Assembly: GCA_965140585.1 (NCBI GenBank)
Contig: OZ223267.1
Span: forward strand, 160,001 to 224,000
DNA: 64,000 bases
Source: Spirochaetia bacterium
Lineage (GTDB): Bacteria; Spirochaetota; Spirochaetia; UBA9216
Reading direction: 5' to 3'
In this document: positions 11,051 through 45,906 of the stretch, piece by piece
How positions within the stretch are numbered: the stretch's first letter is position 1
How the letters are laid out: every line of letters starts with the position of its first letter
Notes under the pieces: generated by a model
Seen by the model: only the letters and a program-made list of their open reading frames with translations
Databases searched by the model: none
Told to the model about the DNA's origin: nothing
Position numbers and translations under genes: made by a program

Positions 11051-11116
11051 TATTTATCTCCTCTAACCTTGCCCGGATTCAAGAAGATACAGGATTTCCG
11101 TAACTCTGAAAAGTCA

Positions 11117-11293
11117 GGTGACTAGCTCCCCAGCGTACTTAAAGTAGCGCTGACAGTTTTGGAAGTATTAGCTCCCAAGCCCAGAAAACTGTTCTGCGGA
11201 AAACAGCCTCTTCGGCGGCATTACCTTTCGGTCAGCTTCACGGGCGTCCGCGGCCTCAGCTGCCTACTAATTAACTGCCGCACCTCTATCACC
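11117..11293 (-). ncRNA. Lysine riboswitch (L-box) aptamer
   Basis: Minus strand reads GGTGATAGAGGTGC...GAAAGG...GCCGAA...CTGGG...ACTGTC...GGGGAGCTAGTCACC; P1 closes; lies upstream of dapB-dapA. Confidence 0.9.
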
Positions 11294-11313
11294 GGTGCAA
11301 TCAATTTGTACTA

Positions 11314-16737: not shown

Positions 16738-16781
16738 TTTTATAAGTTCTTTTGACGATAATTCTGATTAGGAGGGCTGTA

Positions 16782-17393
16782 ATGAAAATAAAACTCATTA
16801 TGGTTGCAGTACTTATATCAGCTGCCCTTATACTTGCTTCCTGCCAGCAGGTTTTTACCAGTAGTGTTTACACTCTTTTAGGTTATTCAACCGATATGTC
16901 CAGTATGACCGATGAGCAGAAGGTCTCATACGCACAGGATTTGCTCAGTTCCGGCAGTGCAGAAGATATGCAGACGGCATATGATGAAATTTTTGCGATG
17001 CTTGGTGATGATCTGAGTGCTGCCGATCCTGAACTGGTACTTCTTGCCGCCGATTTGGCTGTAGGTGCCTCCGGTCTTGGAGATGCTGTTACAGACGGTC
17101 TGGAACTGCTGACTTCCGGTTCAGAGGATGCCGATGCAATGACAAGTCTTATTGAGGGCATAAATACTGATAATCTTGCAGATGCTGTAACTCTAATGGA
17201 AGCTGCTGAAGCCAGCGGTACCGAGATAACCGAAGAACAGTATGCCAATGCTGCCGCAGCCCAGCTGCTTGTAGCTGCAGACGGTGATATAAATAATCTT
17301 GATTTTGAGAGTCCTGATGATGATCTTCAACAGGCCCTGGACTGGGCTGTACTTGGCGGAGTAGATCTGGAATCTCTGTTTGCCGGCGGTTGA
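16782..17393 (+). CDS. Acidic alpha-helical lipoprotein of unknown function
   Basis: GGAGG SD; lipobox LASC; D/E/A-rich. Confidence 0.7.
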   Translation: MKIKLIMVAVLISAALILASCQQVFTSSVYTLLGYSTDMSSMTDEQKVSYAQDLLSSGSAEDMQTAYDEIFAMLGDDLSAADPELVLLAADLAVGASGLGDAVTDGLELLTSGSEDADAMTSLIEGINTDNLADAVTLMEAAEASGTEITEEQYANAAAAQLLVAADGDINNLDFESPDDDLQQALDWAVLGGVDLESLFAGG

Positions 17394-17423
17394 TAGTACA
17401 ATTAAAACAAAACGGAGATTCTG

Positions 17424-18614
17424 ATGCCTAAACGACTGATAATAATTCTTTCAATTACCATTCTGGTATTTACAGTAAGTCCGGCTTTTTCTGCTCCGGA
17501 TTTTTATATGGAGGATATTCGTATTCCTTCAGCTATTGACTCCGGAATGGGAGGCCCATATCCGACAGACAATGAGGGGCTTGAAACAATATTTGCAAAT
17601 CCGGCCTCATTTAAATCTGCAGAAACAGATGTCACCTTTGCGGACTTCAGTCTGCTGCTCAAAGGTCCTATCTTTGATATAACCAGCCTTGTAATAAGCA
17701 GTATTTCGGGAGGAGGGGAACTCACTGATATTCTTTCCTCTTCATCAGCCCAGAGTATTCTGAGCAACATATATACCGGTGTTGAAATGACCGGGCCTAT
17801 ATATTTCGGATATACCGGTGACGGACTTGGATTCGGACTTTTTAATAACACAGATATCACTCTAAGAGAGTCAGGAACACTTGCACTGACTGTTGAGACT
17901 ACCGAGGATATTCTGCTTTGCGGAGGTTATGCATTCAGAATCCCCCTTTCACAGGATCAGACCCATGTTCTTGATGCTGGGGTAATGATGAAAGGCGGTG
18001 TTGAAGGCAGTCTTGAGATAGAGAAGTCGCTTCTTGAACTAACAACGCTGCTCTCTGATTTGAGCCTTGATATAGTTATGGAATCTCCCTTCAGCTTCAG
18101 TACACTAATCGGCCTTGATGCCGGCCTTCTGTATACCTGGGAGGGTCTTCTTTCCGTAGGGCTCACAGCGCAGGATATATATTCGCCTGCAATTAAGTAT
18201 ACATATGATTCCGGTCTTACCGGCTTTATCGACCCTGCTACAGAGGCCCCGACTCCTGAATATGGTTTGATTCCTTTTAAACTTAATGCAGGTGTTGAGC
18301 TTAATCCGGAAATTCCGGCACTTCAGCAGTACATAACAGATTTCCGCTTCCTGGTTGCATATGATGATATTCTTGATTTCTGGCTTTATCCTTCAGAGGC
18401 TGAGAATGCCCTGCTTCATATCAAAACAGGCCTTGAGCTTACTATGCTTGAAATTCTCTCTGTAAGGGTGGGCATGGCAGAAGGATTACTGAATGCAGGA
18501 CTTAGCCTGGATCTGCAGCTGTTTACTTTAAACGCGGCTATGTTCGGAACGGAACTTTCAAGTGTGCCCGGACTGAACCCCGTTTATAACATGATAATCA
18601 GCTTTGTATTATAG
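17424..18614 (+). CDS. Putative outer-membrane beta-barrel (FadL/TraF-like)
   Basis: Signal peptide; GMGG...IFANPA plug motif; amphipathic strands. Confidence 0.6.
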   Translation: MPKRLIIILSITILVFTVSPAFSAPDFYMEDIRIPSAIDSGMGGPYPTDNEGLETIFANPASFKSAETDVTFADFSLLLKGPIFDITSLVISSISGGGELTDILSSSSAQSILSNIYTGVEMTGPIYFGYTGDGLGFGLFNNTDITLRESGTLALTVETTEDILLCGGYAFRIPLSQDQTHVLDAGVMMKGGVEGSLEIEKSLLELTTLLSDLSLDIVMESPFSFSTLIGLDAGLLYTWEGLLSVGLTAQDIYSPAIKYTYDSGLTGFIDPATEAPTPEYGLIPFKLNAGVELNPEIPALQQYITDFRFLVAYDDILDFWLYPSEAENALLHIKTGLELTMLEILSVRVGMAEGLLNAGLSLDLQLFTLNAAMFGTELSSVPGLNPVYNMIISFVL

Positions 18615-18709: not shown

Positions 18710-18782
18710 GGGCCGCTAGCTCAGCTGGTAGAGCAACGCCCTTTTAAGGCGTGGGTCACAGGTTCGAACCCTGTGCGGCTCA
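18710..18782 (+). tRNA. tRNA-Lys(TTT)
   Basis: Cloverleaf; anticodon arm acgcc-ctTTTaa-ggcgt; GGTTCGAAC T-loop. Confidence 0.95.
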
Positions 18783-18811: not shown

Positions 18812-18886
<75 letters not shown>

Positions 18887-18894
18887 AATAATTA

Positions 18895-18927
18895 GGACTG
18901 TTTCTTTACGGAAACAGTCCTTTTTTT
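18895..18927 (+). terminator. Intrinsic terminator after the tRNAs
   Basis: aggactgtttc-tttacg-gaaacagtcct followed by a T-run. Confidence 0.85.
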
Positions 18928-19174
18928 ATTTAAAAACTGAGCTAAAGAGTATTGAGTTTTATACTGATTAAAAATAGAATATATTCATTACATAAAGAAA
19001 TTGGAAATAAGTAATTTGAAAAAACTGAAAACAAAAAAAATATTCGCATCTCTAATTTATATTCATTACATACCTAATATTCAGCTACAAAACAAGTTTT
19101 CGTTTTAGGTTAAATTTCCAGTCTCAACAATACGGCTGTATAAAAGTCTACAGCTTCAATTTTGAGGAGGAGAA

Positions 19175-20428
19175 ATGAACTCAAAAAAAATAAGCTTTTT
19201 GCTAAATGTTGTATTAATTATCAGTACGCTTATGCTCTCCGGATGTCCCGGTGTTACCGGCGGAAATGAAGATCCGGCTGCTGTTATAAAAATTGCAGCA
19301 ACTACAGCGGATGCTGGAGATGAACTTTTCTTCGATGCGTCTGACAGTTCGGATTCAGACGGAAGTATTTCAGAATACAGCTGGAACTTCGGAGATGGAA
19401 GCAGTCTGGAAACTGATGAATCAGTTTCGCATGCATTCAGTACAGCCGGTTCATATACTGTTGAACTCATAGTGACCGACAATGATGGAGCCGAAGATTC
19501 TGCATCAGTTATAATGACAATTATTTCTCCGGCAGTACTGAATACCGCACCTGTCGCAGACATTCAGACATCTTCTACAACAGTCAAAACTGGTACTTCA
19601 TTAGAGTTTGATGGAAGCGGAAGCTATGATTCAGATGGTTCAATCAGTTCATACAGCTGGGATTTCGGTGATGGAAATACTTCAAGTCTGGGGCCTCTGG
19701 TATCCCATGTTTATTCATCAGCAGGGTCTTATACAGCCGTGCTGACAGTAGAAGATGATGATGGTTATACTGACGATTTCGAAATTGAGATTACTGTAGT
19801 TGATAATCTCCTTCCTTCTGCTTCATTCACGACCTCTGACTGCTCAGTACAGATTGGAGATGCGATTAATTTGGACGCCTCGGCAAGTGAAGATCCAGAC
19901 GGCACAATAGTGTCATATGACTGGGATTTTGGAGATGGAAATTACGATACGGGAGAAACTTTATCGCATACCTATACTGCAGCCGGAGGTTATACGGTAA
20001 TTCTGACAGTAGCTGATGATGCAGGCGGCACGGATATTGAAATGATTTCAATCACAGTAAGTGACGGAACTTATGATCCGCCTTCGGCTAATGCCGGTGA
20101 TGATCAGGATGTTGATCTTGATTCTGTTTCAGAAGTTGTGCTTGATGCTTCCGGAAGCAGTGCATCATCAGGGCATTCAATAAGTTCCTACCTATGGACT
20201 TTTTACTCGAAACCAGATGGCAGTACACTTACAAATTCCGACATCACCGATTCGACCAATGTTATAGCAGGGTTTGATATAGCCGATGAAGAATGTTCAC
20301 ACGATGATAACGGGGACTTTGTTTATATCATGAAGCTTCTGGTGACAGATGATACATCAGTAAGTTCAACTGACTATATGACCGTAACAGCTACAGGAAG
20401 CAGCATTGTTACTGTGATAATTTATTAA
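19175..20428 (+). CDS. PKD-repeat lipoprotein (3 canonical PKD + 1 PKD-like domain + C-terminal strand)
   Basis: Lipobox LSGC; three W(N/D)FGDG motifs; ANAGDDQ domain. Confidence 0.85.
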   Translation: MNSKKISFLLNVVLIISTLMLSGCPGVTGGNEDPAAVIKIAATTADAGDELFFDASDSSDSDGSISEYSWNFGDGSSLETDESVSHAFSTAGSYTVELIVTDNDGAEDSASVIMTIISPAVLNTAPVADIQTSSTTVKTGTSLEFDGSGSYDSDGSISSYSWDFGDGNTSSLGPLVSHVYSSAGSYTAVLTVEDDDGYTDDFEIEITVVDNLLPSASFTTSDCSVQIGDAINLDASASEDPDGTIVSYDWDFGDGNYDTGETLSHTYTAAGGYTVILTVADDAGGTDIEMISITVSDGTYDPPSANAGDDQDVDLDSVSEVVLDASGSSASSGHSISSYLWTFYSKPDGSTLTNSDITDSTNVIAGFDIADEECSHDDNGDFVYIMKLLVTDDTSVSSTDYMTVTATGSSIVTVIIY

Positions 20429-20437
20429 GGTGGAAAT

Positions 20438-22279
20438 ATGAAAAGTAAAATATTAACAATTTTAATTATTATCTGTGCCGGTTTTTTTATCTCCTGTGAT
20501 AATCCATTATCGAGTATTGACTCAAACGATGTAATTATTACCGGAAGCCTGTCTAGTTCAGAGAGTACGATCGGAGAAACCGGTACAGTTTCTTTTTCAT
20601 TTAAAGCGGTGTCCGATGATATAAAGAACCTGACATCTTCTGCTCAGGAGGAAAACTCCAGACTCTTCTTTTTTATCAATACTTACGAAATTAATATCAA
20701 AGATAGTAATGGAGATGTTCTGGGAACATTTAGCGGCAGTTCCTCAAGTATGTTCGGTTCTGCAGTTATTGCAAGTGTTGCAAATATTCCATACGGTTCT
20801 GGATATTCCGCTGAAGTAAAAGTATATAATCCTGATGTATCATCAATAGAGCCGGTTCTTCTCGGCACATCCTCAGACTTTGATCTCGGCCGTGAAAATG
20901 TTTCTGTGTCTGTGTATCTATTTCCTTTCAACGCTGTTTCTTTAACTGATGGATATTCTGAAGACATAGAGCTCGTCACATGCGTGTATGATTATCAGGA
21001 TAGTCATGATTTTGCTTCAACAGGAGGGGAGTACTGGTATTCAGTGACCCCTGAAGCTTTTCCCGTTACTTTCACAATGACTCCGGATTCAGAATCTGCC
21101 CCCTATTTTATCGCATGGGATTCGGATGGTATAAGCAGTGATGGTTCTACAGATGATTATGTTCTAACCGGACAGTATGGTGATCAGGTTGTGGTGACTG
21201 CATTGGGTATGGATATTGGAAAAACCTACTATATTGGGGTTGTATTATTTTCTGAAGTAAAAGAAAGCCATGAACTTCTATTTGAGTTTGACAACGGTAC
21301 TCCTTTTCCCGGTGATGTATATGAGCCCAATAACGGCTATGATGATGCTTACGAAATTACAGCAGGAACCGATTACTTTCCGAATTTTAACTACACCGGA
21401 GATTATGATTATTACAAGATAGATATCAGTGAAGGTTCTACATATATGATTGATCCGGCTCCATATGGAACAGCCAGCAGCAGCCTATATGTATTTTTAC
21501 TAGATGAAGTTGAAGAGTATATAAGCTCTGTTTCCCAATCTGATACAGATGGCGACGGATATCAAGAATCAGGTTATCTCGCCACATATACTGGGGAAAT
21601 GAGAATTGGATTTTATGGTACCTTTGGAGATTATTCGTTTACTGTAATCGAAAATACACACCCCACAGCCAGCTTTACATATACCCCGTCTCCTGCAGAA
21701 ACGGATATGCCTGTTCTTTTTGACGGAACCTCTAGTACTGATGCTGATGATACTATAGTTTCATGGATTTGGGATTTCGGAGATGGGAGCAGTGACAGCG
21801 GAGAGTCCGTATCGCATATTTATACTGAGGTAAGCGAATATCTGGTATCTCTTACCTGCACTGATTCCGCTGGAGCAACAAGTACAACTTTGCAGAAGGT
21901 TGTTGTTAACAGTGTATCGAATTATGCACCCTCTGCGGATGCCGGTCCGGATCAGAATTTAGATACCGATGTTGACGGAACAGTAGTTTACCTTGACGGA
22001 TCCGGAAGTACTGACACTCTGCCCGGCACCATAGCAGGCTATAATTGGATGTTCTATTCATATCCGGAAGGCTGCTGGTCACCTGATTTCAGCCTTTACG
22101 GAAGTAATACTGTATCTGCTTATTTTGATATTGATGACGTAGGTGGAGATCCCGATTTAAACGGTGAATTGGAATATGAACTTTTGCTAATAGTGACCGA
22201 TGACGGGGGTGCCACTTCATTTGATTTTGTCACAATTAATGTGACTGGCAGCGGTTCACTAAACATAATTGTGGAATAA
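20438..22279 (+). CDS. Mosaic lipoprotein: pilin-like N-module, PPC-like, PKD and PKD-like domains
   Basis: Lipobox FISC; DVYEPNN, WDFGDG, ADAGPDQ. Confidence 0.8.
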   Translation: MKSKILTILIIICAGFFISCDNPLSSIDSNDVIITGSLSSSESTIGETGTVSFSFKAVSDDIKNLTSSAQEENSRLFFFINTYEINIKDSNGDVLGTFSGSSSSMFGSAVIASVANIPYGSGYSAEVKVYNPDVSSIEPVLLGTSSDFDLGRENVSVSVYLFPFNAVSLTDGYSEDIELVTCVYDYQDSHDFASTGGEYWYSVTPEAFPVTFTMTPDSESAPYFIAWDSDGISSDGSTDDYVLTGQYGDQVVVTALGMDIGKTYYIGVVLFSEVKESHELLFEFDNGTPFPGDVYEPNNGYDDAYEITAGTDYFPNFNYTGDYDYYKIDISEGSTYMIDPAPYGTASSSLYVFLLDEVEEYISSVSQSDTDGDGYQESGYLATYTGEMRIGFYGTFGDYSFTVIENTHPTASFTYTPSPAETDMPVLFDGTSSTDADDTIVSWIWDFGDGSSDSGESVSHIYTEVSEYLVSLTCTDSAGATSTTLQKVVVNSVSNYAPSADAGPDQNLDTDVDGTVVYLDGSGSTDTLPGTIAGYNWMFYSYPEGCWSPDFSLYGSNTVSAYFDIDDVGGDPDLNGELEYELLLIVTDDGGATSFDFVTINVTGSGSLNIIVE

Positions 22280-22289
22280 AGGTAAGTCT

Positions 22290-23843
22290 ATGAAACATAT
22301 TAATAAAATAATATTAAATATTCTGCTATCAATAGGTATTTTTATAATAATGTCCTGCCCTGAGCCGCTGAGTGTTTCGCAGGAACTATCTGAGAATTCA
22401 GAAGTTGAAATGCTGGCTTCTGAATCCCTGAAACAGTCCGGGTCTTTTGTGATAAAAATCCCGACAGTTTCCTCATATCTTCTCGAGGCCCTGGGAGCTG
22501 CGAAGGACTCTGTACCAGCTGAAAGCAGAGCTCTGATGCTTGCCAGAGAAGTTGAAGTTTTTCTTTATAATTCTGCAGGTACACTTATTGATTCAAGCAC
22601 AGGTTCTAATAATAGTGATGATGGATATTATGCGGTTGGATTCAGCGATATTCCCTACGGAGGCGGTTATGAGGTTGAAGTCAATGTTTACAACAGTGAT
22701 GTTTCAGATACTGCGCCCATTCTGACTGGGGGGGCAAGCAATATTGAAATAGGCGCCGGCATTAATGATCAATATGTATTTCTTATTCCTGCAGATCCTG
22801 AAATTATAAGTATGAGTGATTCAGAGAGTATAAAAAGTATCGAATATGATTTTGATAATGATTTGATCTCTGAGTTCGGTGGCGAGAAATGGTACTCCTT
22901 TTCACCGGCAACGGATTTCGTAGAGATTACAGTAACTCCGGATTCTGTCTCCGGTGTTTATGCTGTCTTATACGACAGCTCGGGAGATTTTATTGAATCA
23001 GCAGTCAGTGAAGGTCTGGAAGACTCCGGAACCTTTGGGAATCCGGCTGTTATAATTGCCGATGTTTCCTGGGACAGTACCTGCTATATCGGAATTGTGT
23101 CAGTTGCATCTGCGGCCGAAACACATAGTTTCGAGATACAGATTGGAGAACCAGATCCTGTATCTTTTGTGGTTAATTTGTCGGATAGTGGCGCCTATGA
23201 AAGCTCAGATGTGTTTTACAGCGTGATGTCATCGTACGATGATGATCCTTTTTCTGATCAGGTAGCATATGCCACTTCTCTCATTTCATCCGGAACAGCT
23301 TTTGCAACCATGCTTGATGTTACTGACGATTCTACCTGGGAAAATCTTGGTACCTGGTATATCTATATTTTAATCGATGCTGATGGTGATGGAAATGAAA
23401 GTCTCGGTGATGCTTATTTGCTTTACAGTTTTTGCCTACCCTTTGATTCGGTCTTAAACCTGAACACATCAGATATTACCTCAATTCTCGGGCCGGACAT
23501 CTATGAGGATGATAATGTTTATACGGATGCAGCAGAAATTTATACAGATACACCCCAGTTTAGAAGTCTACATGAAGAGGGTGATGAGGACTGGGTGTCC
23601 TTCACGCCTGTTTCGGGGACAACATATGTTATTGAAACACTTCTTTCTGATGTAAACGTTGATACATATTTGAATTTATATAACAGCAGTATCGAGTTGA
23701 TTACTTCAGATGATGATGGAGGTGATGATAATTTCTCAAAAATTACATACACTGCCGATTCCTCTGATACCCTTTATATCAAGGTAAGCGGTTATAATCC
23801 TTCTATAACTGGGAATTATATACTGTCAATTACAGAAAATTAA
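22290..23843 (+). CDS. Lipoprotein: pilin-like N-module plus C-terminal PPC-like domain
   Basis: Lipobox IMSC; DIYEDDN...DEDWVSF...DTYLNLY...DDDGG; start moved to ATG 22290. Confidence 0.8.
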   Translation: MKHINKIILNILLSIGIFIIMSCPEPLSVSQELSENSEVEMLASESLKQSGSFVIKIPTVSSYLLEALGAAKDSVPAESRALMLAREVEVFLYNSAGTLIDSSTGSNNSDDGYYAVGFSDIPYGGGYEVEVNVYNSDVSDTAPILTGGASNIEIGAGINDQYVFLIPADPEIISMSDSESIKSIEYDFDNDLISEFGGEKWYSFSPATDFVEITVTPDSVSGVYAVLYDSSGDFIESAVSEGLEDSGTFGNPAVIIADVSWDSTCYIGIVSVASAAETHSFEIQIGEPDPVSFVVNLSDSGAYESSDVFYSVMSSYDDDPFSDQVAYATSLISSGTAFATMLDVTDDSTWENLGTWYIYILIDADGDGNESLGDAYLLYSFCLPFDSVLNLNTSDITSILGPDIYEDDNVYTDAAEIYTDTPQFRSLHEEGDEDWVSFTPVSGTTYVIETLLSDVNVDTYLNLYNSSIELITSDDDGGDDNFSKITYTADSSDTLYIKVSGYNPSITGNYILSITEN

Positions 23844-23854
23844 AAAATTATTCA

Positions 23855-23881
23855 AGGCTGCCGGGGTATTCCCGGCAGCCT
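23855..23881 (+). terminator. Hairpin ending the lipoprotein operon
   Basis: aggctgccggg-gtatt-cccggcagcct. Confidence 0.65.
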
Positions 23882-23960
23882 CAAGTCTTGCATTTGTAAT
23901 TCTCATTTGCTCAAATTGTTCTTGCTTTTCCTGGTTTGGGTAGATTAAAATTATGTTAAG

Positions 23961-31741: not shown

Positions 31742-33279
<1,538 letters not shown>

Positions 33280-33550
33280 CAATGTGAAAGGAACGTGACT
33301 AAGTTAGAAAACTTCGGTTTAAAACTTAGCTTAGAGTTTGTTTACAAGCTTTAACGCTTTAATAGTCATGGAAAAACAGCCTGTTAGGCAAAAACAACAC
33401 AGCGAAATATAGCTTGCTATATTTCCGAGATGCAGCTTGCTGCATCTCCGCTCTCTTTCTTCCTTTTTTATATTAAGTGAAGGTCAACTGGTTTTACTCT
33501 TGTGGAGATTTACCATGTAAAGCTCTGGAGGGAGTCTTTGATTTTCTCTC

Positions 33551-33624
33551 GGGGGTATAGCTCAGCTGGCTAGAGCGGTGGCTTTGCAAGCCATAGGTCT
33601 GGGGTTCGAATCCCCATACCTCCA
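33551..33624 (+). tRNA. tRNA-Ala(TGC) in the ITS
   Basis: Anticodon arm gtggc-ttTGCaa-gccat; G3:U70 pair. Confidence 0.95.
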
Positions 33625-33849
33625 ATAGATATTTAACCGGTAACGGTTTGATATAATAAAGTTCTACTTGTAGTGCTTTAAGACATAGTCTCCATAGAGA
33701 GATTTAAGTTTGGCTTTGTCAAACTTAAGAGAATACGAAATATTCTCCGTTCTTTAAAATAGATAAAGACTGTTGAAATAATACAGTTTTGAAAACTTAT
33801 CCATATAACAGGGAGTGGATAAGTATAGGGAAGGGTTAAGAGGTAATAT

Positions 33850-36836
<2,987 letters not shown>

Positions 36837-37020
36837 ATATTTCCCCTTAATCAATTCCCAGAGAATTGAGCCAATAGGCTGCATGGACTATAGAGTCCTG
36901 TGAATAGCAACCTATCGTGCCCAATACTCAATCCCTGTATGATTTTACTTTGTAAAATCATAATGGAGTTTTACTCTGCGAGTAAAACATCCATTTCGAT
37001 AAATTATTTTTGAATAATTA

Positions 37021-37130
<110 letters not shown>

Positions 37131-40517: not shown

Positions 40518-42055
<1,538 letters not shown>

Positions 42056-42326
42056 CAATGTGAAAGGAACGTGACTAAGTTAGAAAACTTCGGTTTAAAA
42101 CTTAGCTTAGAGTTTGTTTACAAGCTTTAACGCTTTAATAGTCATGGAAAAACAGCCTGTTAGGCAAAAACAACACAGCGAAATATAGCTTGCTATATTT
42201 CCGAGATGCAGCTTGCTGCATCTCCGCTCTCTTTCTTCCTTTTTTATATTAAGTGAAGGTCAACTGGTTTTACTCTTGTGGAGATTTACCATGTAAAGCT
42301 CTGGAGGGAATCTTTGATTTTCTCTC

Positions 42327-42400
42327 GGGGGTATAGCTCAGCTGGCTAGAGCGGTGGCTTTGCAAGCCATAGGTCTGGGGTTCGAATCCCCATACCTCCA
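42327..42400 (+). tRNA. tRNA-Ala(TGC) in the ITS
   Basis: Same as copy 1. Confidence 0.95.
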
Positions 42401-42625
42401 ATAGATATTTAACCGGTAACGGTTTGATATAATAAAGTTCTACTTGTAGTGCTTTAAGACATAGTCTCCATAGAGAGATTTAAGTTTGGCTTTGTCAAAC
42501 TTAAGAGAATACGAAATATTCTCCGTTCTTTAAAATAGATAAAGACTGTTGAAATAATACAGTTTTGAAAACTTATCCATATAACAGGGAGTGGATAAGT
42601 ATAGGGAAGGGTTAAGAGGTAATAT

Positions 42626-45612
<2,987 letters not shown>

Positions 45613-45796
45613 ATATTTCCCCTTAATCAATTCCCAGAGAATTGAGCCAATAGGCTGCATGGACTATAGAGTCCTGTGAATAGCAACCTATCGTGCCCAA
45701 TACTCAATCCCTGTATGATTTTACTTTGTAAAATCATAATGGAGTTTTACTCTGCGAGTAAAACATCCATTTCGATAAATTATTTTTGAATAATTA

Positions 45797-45906
<110 letters not shown>

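Follow-up and report, generated by a model that had tools for sequence, protein, structure and literature searches.

We report an operon of three lipoprotein genes in a member of the Spirochaetia whose products, here called P1, P2 and P3, appear to be joined to one another by strand complementation. The operon occupies positions 19175–23843 on the plus strand of a 64,000-nucleotide stretch of DNA (the window), corresponding to positions 160,001–224,000 of contig OZ223267.1 in the Spirochaetia bacterium assembly GCA_965140585.1. P1 and P2 end in a short tail, while P2 and P3 begin with related domains, termed D1, whose first strand this tail resembles. An initial annotation of the DNA had proposed P1 as donor only, P2 as acceptor and donor, and P3 as acceptor only, and these roles are supported by the order of such genes elsewhere (21 of 28 cases), by the mimicry between the strands and by a predicted complex (interface score ipSAE 0.78 versus 0.00 for the best control). 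The observed architecture is real, far beyond chance. We consider it probable that tail and D1 form a functional plug-and-socket pair and, with somewhat less assurance, we favour the view that the operon encodes a self-assembling surface fibre joined by strand complementation between lipoproteins.

Tail and proposed socket in the three predicted lipoproteins

As the initial annotation described, three co-oriented open reading frames (ORFs) for lipoproteins fill the interval, and a lipobox can be read in each of the translations (LSGC with Cys24 in P1, FISC with Cys20 in P2 and IMSC in P3); all three are predicted to be lipoproteins, each with a signal peptide ending in the lipobox. The genes and the elements discussed below are as follows.

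19175–20428, plus strand: P1, 417 amino acids (aa), from the ORF list
20393–20425, plus strand: C-terminal tail of P1, TGSSIVTVIIY (residues 407–417), proposed donor strand
20438–22279, plus strand: P2, 613 aa, from the ORF list
20570–20935, plus strand: D1 acceptor domain of P2 (residues 45–166), D1 profile E 1.3e-31
20579–20605, plus strand: N-terminal anchor strand of P2, TGTVSFSFK (residues 48–56), model strand E29–37
20657–20662, plus strand: Ser74-Arg75 of P2 with Leu next, proposed cleavage site (family column; loop in the model)
20924–21301, plus strand: D2 of P2 (residues 163–288), PPC or collagen-binding-like beta-sandwich, from a fold match
22244–22276, plus strand: C-terminal tail of P2, TGSGSLNIIVE (residues 603–613), proposed donor for P3 or another P2
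22290–23843, plus strand: P3, 517 aa from ATG 22290 (alternative TTG 22269, 524 aa)
22434–22799, plus strand: D1 acceptor domain of P3, D1 profile E 3.3e-35 and homology to P2
22437–22463, plus strand: N-strand of P3, SGSFVIKIP
22524–22532, plus strand: Ser-Arg-Ala of P3

P1 is an array of PKD domains, with three PKD_4 domains (Pfam, E 1.9e-73, 243 bits) and one K319L-like PKD domain (E 4e-33), and has no D1 domain. P2 consists of D1, the PPC-like D2, a second PPC-like domain (residues ~293–400, recognised by eye in the initial annotation and by a 47-residue BLASTP match to the PPC region of P3 at E 3e-05), a PKD_4 domain (406–484, 71 bits), a K319L-like PKD domain (503–602) and the tail. D2 of P2 matches the folds of 3jqw_A (VIA-align, Z 9.5, root-mean-square deviation 2.4, 103 residues aligned) and 5iku_A (Z 9.3). 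P3 begins with D1 and D2, continues through a middle region into a PPC domain and has no tail; its Pfam match to PPC at 439–508 (E 0.018) is below threshold, with 16.4 bits against a cut-off of 25.9. The acidic motifs noted at the outset, as possibly Ca-binding, are present as DTDGDG in P2 (~21500–21560) and DADGDG in P3 (~23350–23400).

The modules said to be shared between the proteins are indeed homologous by alignment. P2 and P3 share the N-module, which in P2 is ~270 residues long and has no Pfam assignment, at 30% identity over ~300 residues (BLASTP, E 1e-25), with all the motifs quoted for it in place, and P1 and P2 share the C-module at 39% identity over 239 residues (BLASTP, E 2e-38), in an alignment that continues through the terminal strand. 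This strand is extra to the last domain, as had been claimed, since the K319L-like PKD profile is matched over positions 2–84 of 84 and ends at P2 residue 602, leaving 11 residues.

D1 opens with the anchor strand, passes through a loop that bears a conserved [RK]-A motif and continues as a beta-sandwich; in the model of P2, the strand TGTVSFSFK leads through a short helix to a lower-confidence loop containing Ser-Arg and on to the remaining sandwich. An exhaustive profile search with the N-module through 1.84 billion representatives returned 201 proteins at E <= 1e-3, 60 of them at E <= 1e-10. The module lies at residues ~30–300 in nearly all of the best 150 of these 201, a few multi-stretch rows matching further along, and, by sequence, nearly all D1-family representatives have a lipobox. 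Ten relatives that were looked up carried no name beyond 'hypothetical protein'. Conservation columns taken from 109 relatives give an anchor-strand consensus of G, [TS], [VIL], x, [IVL], x, [IV], P, with the G in 84 and the P in 83 of 109, and place a basic residue in the following loop in 97 of 109 (R in 70, K in 27; Q in 8), next to which stands A in 93. P3 conforms with Ser-Arg-Ala, while Ser-Arg in P2 precedes Leu, unlike in most relatives, which have Ala. The columns support the proposed Ser-Arg site as part of a family-wide [RK]-A motif. At their C-terminal ends, 148 D1 relatives carry Pfam domains such as PPC (15), LRR_4 (11) and CBM_4_9 (4), with several propellers and immunoglobulin-like (Ig-like) domains, a varied cargo of adhesin-like character.

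Within the organism's own genome (G000), the D1 profile is clear for P2 and P3 alone, besides weak matches, one of which lies outside the window at G000:C5:169859-170773 (E 3.5e-4). Other searches added little: scans for related loci by alignment found no relative, a word-index search with the relative P0255 found two proteins, and an NCBIfam search gave no match on the N-module. A word-index search with the whole of P2 was set aside, having returned just PKD-domain matches that covered at most 40% of the query. Foldseek of the N-module model against the PDB gave generic two-sandwich matches alone (TM ~0.2), and the ESM Atlas gave unnamed clusters and, as a lead only, DUF4493 at 0.81.

The tail can be described by the pattern G-x-G-t-[ILV]-[ND]-[VI]-x-[IVL]-[EQ], which occurs in 46 of 150 D1-family representatives (a few of which resemble the ends of PPC domains), in 0 of 119 other PKD proteins recovered via the PKD domains of P2 and, within the genome of the organism, in 10 of the 4687 ORFs that are 150 aa or longer (~0.2%), P1 and P2 included. 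We also built a position matrix from acceptor N-strands alone, with the C-termini of the organism's genome as the null. The median donor tail scored 6.55 on this matrix, against a null 99th percentile of 5.65; the tail of P1 scored 6.1, in the top 0.9%, and that of P2 9.9, in the top 0.17% of the genome's C-termini. Since donor tails score high on a matrix made from acceptor N-strands, the tail mimics the first strand of the acceptor, a likeness that the initial annotation had pointed out and that holds in the same direction and register in side-by-side pairs. Donor tails come after unrelated last domains (K319L PKD, PKD_4, Bact_surface_Ig-like, Big_9 and FecR-like), which argues against its belonging to a single type of domain. 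The last residue is E or Q in most tails and Tyr in some.

Elsewhere in the genome, a possible second, remote plug-and-socket pair lies on the minus strand at G000:C6:224777-227004, outside the window. Its donor would be a FecR-like secreted protein ending in ...SYGSLEIIIE, which shares 46% identity (E 9e-43) with the donor at locus L093. Its acceptor would be the lipoprotein directly after it; the N-terminus of this protein is D1-like by eye, though the D1 profile does not detect it, and among the weak D1 hits the protein matches L092_10 (E 1.3e-8) and L093_26 (E 1.9e-5). A glycine-rich lipoprotein with a tail-like end (...GDGSVIITLQ) is encoded at G000:C5:59019-60524 (minus strand, outside the window), with no D1 gene downstream.

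An AlphaFold2 model of the P2 N-module (predicted local distance difference test (pLDDT) 85, predicted template modelling score (pTM) 0.84) shows two beta-sandwiches, with the Ser-Arg loop at a block pLDDT of 78 versus ~95 in the core. P1 was modelled by AlphaFold2 at pLDDT 85.6. We predicted the complex of P2 residues 76–292, cut after Arg75 and so lacking the N-strand, with the 118 C-terminal residues of P1. The tail of P1 was placed as a strand inside D1. The ipSAE was 0.76, 0.79 and 0.78 in three runs and 0.00 in the best of three controls; of solved complexes, 58 of 80 attain the mark used for this score, and of mismatched pairs 2 of 110, counts that hold only roughly for the P1–P2 model because custom alignments were used. 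The runs agreed in at least 97% of contacts, with a partner pLDDT of at least 88. In the interface, the P1 tail (fragment residues 108–118) lies between model strands 90–102 and 131–142, antiparallel to strand 91–99 and parallel to 136–142, and also touches 64–68 and 104–108; the P2 side, model residues 90–102, 104–108 and 131–142, corresponds to P2 residues 109–121, 123–127 and 150–161. The model supports binding of the P1 tail to D1, and we infer that the tail would take the groove of the P2 N-strand.

Gene order across the class and the setting of the operon

Genomes were scanned with a D1-only alignment (A5), a longer alignment (A2) having mostly picked up PPC domains in the phylum scan. 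With the D1-only profile, D1 was detected in 25 genomes out of 401 for the class (21 of 156 genera), 3 out of 11 for the order and 3 out of 401 for a phylum-wide sample (this genome included; one weak partial match, E 8.6e-4). For gene order we considered 28 D1 genes at 25 loci in 23 genomes, with the weak partial hits in G550 and G561 left out. The initial annotation had suggested checking whether Ser-Arg modules and tail-strand genes co-occur across spirochaetes, and within the class a conserved order was seen: for 21 of the 28 D1 genes, the adjacent or overlapping same-strand gene upstream ends in a tail of the form G-x-[ILV]-x-[VI]-x-[ILV]-polar. When the N-strand matrix was applied to the nearest upstream ORF, chosen automatically, the score lay at or above the genome null's 95th percentile in 17 of 28 cases and at or above its 99th in 14. 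Of 20 donors, 18 have a clear lipobox, the others being that of L080, whose start is uncertain, and that of L093, which has a plain signal peptide. Most loci comprise just a donor gene and a gene for a tail-less acceptor. At 3 of 23 loci, homologous multi-pass membrane proteins, with a C-terminus like a winged-helix regulator by eye, are encoded just 5' of the donor and acceptor genes (L014:9710-10645, L076:3448-4425 and L078:5015-5953).

In the window, a GAGGAGG ribosome-binding site lies at 19164–19170 ahead of P1, and P2 and P3 start 9 and 10 nucleotides past the preceding stop, respectively, each with a purine-rich site before it. For P3, the ATG at 22290 is a likelier start than the TTG at 22269, with aaggtaag ahead of the ATG and the representative P0125 beginning at MKHINK. 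The unit 19175–23843 is bounded by terminators on both sides:

18710–18782 and 18812–18883, plus strand: two tRNA genes at the upstream boundary (Rfam matches)
18894–18921, plus strand: terminator hairpin at the upstream boundary (terminator scan)
23852–23884, strand unassigned: G+C-rich hairpin of 14 pairs closing the operon (terminator scan)

The scan reported the last hairpin on the minus strand with a T-run, and the same stem stands on the plus strand 3' of the P3 stop. The homologous tRNAs in a genome of the same genus, G001, are tRNA-Lys and tRNA-Glu. In G001 both flanks are 90–92% identical, the segment corresponding to window 18930–23912 is absent and no D1 gene is found, a comparison by which the operon is accessory. 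The genome that holds the operon has three genes for FlaA, a protein not known outside spirochaetes, in support of a spirochaete origin.

In G001, the corresponding tRNA-Glu site is occupied by a 13-kb island (L099, G001:C4:2146600-2160300) that is bordered by a repeated tRNA 3' end and contains a tyrosine integrase and, by eye only, QueC-, transglycosylase-, nucleotidyltransferase- and NTPase-like genes. Just 5' of the tRNAs, window 16752–18614 holds genes for a 213-aa acidic lipoprotein and for a 396-aa protein with a signal peptide, the latter with weak matches to the PorV family (E 0.009) and TraF_2 (E 0.003) and possibly an outer-membrane barrel. Further away lie two tandem, near-identical rRNA operons (16S, tRNA, 23S, 5S; 31742–37130 and 40518–45906), which together take up less than 15 kb, and a lysine riboswitch at 11114–11296 on the minus strand (99.9 bits).

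Assembly model and competing explanations

In the mechanism that we propose, P1, P2 and P3 would all be exported as lipoproteins. P1, with neither socket nor cleavage motif, would stay behind as a lipid-anchored stalk of four PKD domains offering its 11-residue tail, while P2 and P3 would start with the D1 socket, the anchor strand tethered to the lipidated Cys and the Ser-Arg loop next. A cut in this loop would release the anchor strand, and the tail of the preceding protein would replace it in the D1 sheet, such that P1 would hold P2, and the tail of P2 would hold P3 or another P2. The outcome would be an outer-membrane-anchored chain displaying PPC and PKD binding modules. Proteolysis, polymer length and surface exposure are the parts of this scheme that we infer. 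That the anchor strand must be cut away by proteolysis for assembly, as in the type V pili of Bacteroidia, appears to us an evenly balanced proposition, and we doubt that P2 forms long homopolymers; P2 might just as well serve as one adaptor linking P1 to P3 rather than as a shaft. Loci L083 and L084 are two-gene operons with a tail-only lipoprotein followed by a protein with both D1 and tail, and with no further D1 gene, which, like the solitary D1-plus-tail gene of L089, fits self-polymerisation.

A lead on the protease comes from the metagenomic relative P0228, in which D1 is fused to a clostripain-family peptidase (Peptidase_C11, E 1.3e-55). Clostripain is Arg-specific. The genome has a single C11 gene, on contig C6 (L094:1165-2787, that is, G000:C6:361314-362936), which encodes a lipoprotein (AMFSINSC); as a speculation, this could be the maturation protease.

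Several observations weigh against a fibre assembled in this way. No Pfam pilin family (P_gingi_FimA, Mfa_like or Mfa2) matches P1–P3 at E <= 0.1, none is hit in their relatives, and profile searches of the PDB returned no pilin at E <= 10, finding collagenase PPC domains or spurious WD40 repeats instead. In structural comparison with VIA-align, D1 does align to the N-terminal domains of pilins from their first strand:

D1 against 5nf4_B, Mfa3: Z 7.3
D1 against 3gf8_A, DUF1812 family: Z 6.9, 19% identity
D1 against 5nfi_B, Mfa2: Z 6.9
D1 against 4qdg_B, BT2657: Z 6.9
D1 against 3up6_B, BACOVA_04078: Z 6.6

However, unrelated sandwiches match D1 as well (ExsB with Z 8.3 and GH2 Ig-like domains with 7.5, versus 6.6–7.3 for the pilins), so that by these scores D1 is only possibly homologous to the pilins. 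The likeness between tail and N-strand is also not significantly pair-specific (10.3 for a donor's own acceptor versus 9.0 for others, permutation p 0.098). The putative cleavage motif is imperfect, P2 having SR-L rather than SR-A and 12 of 109 relatives lacking R or K, 8 of them with Q, and an alternative role for the conserved basic residue could be to bind the terminal carboxylate of the tail. The complex was modelled solely with the N-strand deleted, which favours insertion, from a partner alignment of two rows and against controls that did not include a tail-less donor. The monomer model of P1 places the tail past the last domain strand (E397–407), as a short strand (E413–416) with a block pLDDT of 66, and the tail may therefore fold back on its own domain, a possible resting state.

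The gene order, too, has exceptions that count against the scheme, with 7 of the 28 D1 genes lacking an upstream tail gene. L077_30 and L078_6 each come first and carry a tail of their own ahead of the next D1 gene, L089 is the solitary gene mentioned above, the upstream tail gene is absent at L086 and L090, and L091 and L092 are at contig ends. At L078 (G518, L078:6100-13860) the order itself differs, the chain running from a D1-plus-tail protein (777 aa) through a D1 protein without tail (1083 aa) to a third lipoprotein with a tail-like end (...EEDVQITVQ), and therefore the anchor is not always the first gene. Among the 23 loci compared there was no recurrent neighbour family apart from donors and acceptors, and no conserved protease or other helper gene beside them.

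Some of these points would suit a more static arrangement, in which the tail of protein n docks on D1 of protein n+1, by beta-strand augmentation or by a swap with an uncleaved N-strand, and gives a fixed 1:1:1 heteromeric lipoprotein complex at the surface or in the periplasm, all partners remaining lipid-anchored and neither proteolysis nor polymerisation being involved. The synteny rule and the complex model fit this arrangement equally well, most loci are pairs of a donor and a tail-less acceptor, no protease gene is conserved nearby and R/K is absent in 12 of 109 relatives. We nevertheless hold it to be unlikely, as the tail mimics the N-strand in both sequence and register, suggesting competition for one site, and as [RK]-A is highly conserved though it stands in a lower-confidence loop; D1-plus-tail proteins without a downstream acceptor (L083, L084 and L089) and the fusion of D1 to clostripain are also at odds with it.

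Two further explanations concern the tail. Were P1, P2 and P3 three independent surface adhesin lipoproteins with modules shared through domain shuffling, the tail would do no more than cap the last Ig-like domain. In keeping with such independence, arrays of PKD and PPC domains are frequent among adhesins and proteases, the fold matches of D1 are generic and the P1 tail is a short strand beside the last domain in the monomer model; yet the tail is found after five or more unrelated types of domain, none of the 119 other PKD proteins carries it and it stands before 21 of the 28 D1 genes, against a pattern background of ~0.2% in the genome, and the complex controls scored 0.00, which makes this account improbable. 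That the tail is instead a C-terminal sorting or export signal for an outer-membrane machine, with D1 unrelated to it, seems to us very improbable. An amphipathic C-terminal tail ending in Tyr does resemble a beta-signal, and the tail is strictly C-terminal and amphipathic, with some examples ending in Tyr, but most end in E or Q, the tip proteins, which are likely to be surface-exposed, have none, and the tail tracks a neighbouring D1 gene, not a machine gene.

A fibre joined by strand complementation thus being the reading that we prefer for the operon, a wider proposal can be put forward tentatively, and we would rate it somewhat below even: the D1 loci may represent an unrecognised, chaperone-free plug-and-socket pilus system of Spirochaetia and uncultured bacteria, with a 10-residue C-terminal tail that could be put on any Ig-like stalk, a DUF4493-like socket, a cut at [RK]-A, possibly by a clostripain-like protease, shafts with both D1 and tail, and interchangeable tail-less tips bearing LRR, PPC or CBM domains. 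If the assembly model proposed here is right, ~200 uncharacterised proteins would be assembly sockets, and hypothetical lipoprotein pairs could be read by a simple rule, with the tail on gene n and the socket on gene n+1. A modular display of adhesin domains would be open to spirochaetes, and the minimal pair of one peptide and one domain would be directly testable in vitro.

Relation to known strand-exchange systems

Chaperone-usher pili have as donor an N-terminal extension that inserts antiparallel, and they require a periplasmic chaperone and an outer-membrane usher, whereas the proposed donor here is C-terminal and borne by lipoproteins. What is alike is donor-strand exchange, in which an Ig-like fold, incomplete by itself, gains a strand from the neighbouring subunit; the excerpted text of PMC13655056 mentions this too. 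Chaperone-usher and sortase-type pili were both considered, and no conserved neighbour gene at 23 loci supports either. The chaperone-free filaments of archaea (threads, cannulae and Tat-fimbriae) are alike in self-assembling by donor-strand complementation, as far as excerpts describe them; their subunits are not lipoproteins, are unrelated and belong to another domain of life. The literature searched held no description of a strand-exchange surface fibre in spirochaetes.

The uncharacterised Pfam family DUF4493 (PF14900) matches 21 of 148 D1 relatives at E <= 1e-3 (best 1.5e-10) over profile positions ~12–110, corresponding to D1. The relative P0255 reaches 30.9 bits, above the gathering score of 27 bits, while P2 and P3 have no match at E <= 0.1; since relatives pass the threshold and P2 and P3 do not, the link is one by transitivity. 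Among 14 control genomes, Bacteroides thetaiotaomicron alone gives a match to DUF4493, below the cut-off, and the literature searched makes no mention of the family.

The nearest likeness is to type V pili. As described in the excerpt of PMC13655056, type V pilins are lipoproteins whose anchor strand carries the lipidated Cys and which are cleaved at Arg46 or Arg49 in the loop after that strand; C-terminal donor strands finally take the place of the acceptor's anchor strand, a self-complementing state is described, tips have no donor strand and the anchor has no cleavage site. Against that excerpted description, the operon is alike in its lipobox-bearing precursors, in an anchor strand after the Cys with a conserved Arg/Lys in the next loop (here a motif only), in a C-terminal donor on base and stalk (P1 and P2) and none on the tip (P3), in an anchor without the cleavage motif (P1) and in having no chaperone or usher genes. 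Every logical feature in that description appears, by this comparison, to have a counterpart in the operon. The differences are equally plain. The host here is a spirochaete, whereas type V pili are stated, in the same excerpt, to be unique to the class Bacteroidia; sequence searches match no pilin family, and the fold match, at Z ~7, extends to a single domain; the second domain has a PPC fold where theirs is the transthyretin-like C-terminal domain of pilins; the anchor, analogous in role, is a PKD or other Ig array where theirs is a pilin homologue; the donor is a single strand of ~8–10 residues appended to any Ig-like domain; and most loci here are two-gene pairs.

What stands of the interpretation first given to this operon is therefore its donor and acceptor logic, carried by gene order, strand mimicry and the complex model; homology to FimA/Mfa pilins is not supported, there being no sequence match, a generic fold match, a D2 of the PPC type and an anchor made of PKD domains. 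With no pilin sequence match and a middling fold match, we read the system as one that works like a type V pilus, outside the FimA/Mfa family as far as membership can be demonstrated. Protease-mediated strand exchange between lipoproteins is described, in the excerpt of PMC13655056, as a speciality of Bacteroidia. If the wider proposal is true, either the principle of type V assembly would have been reinvented convergently beyond that class, or its ancestry would be deep.

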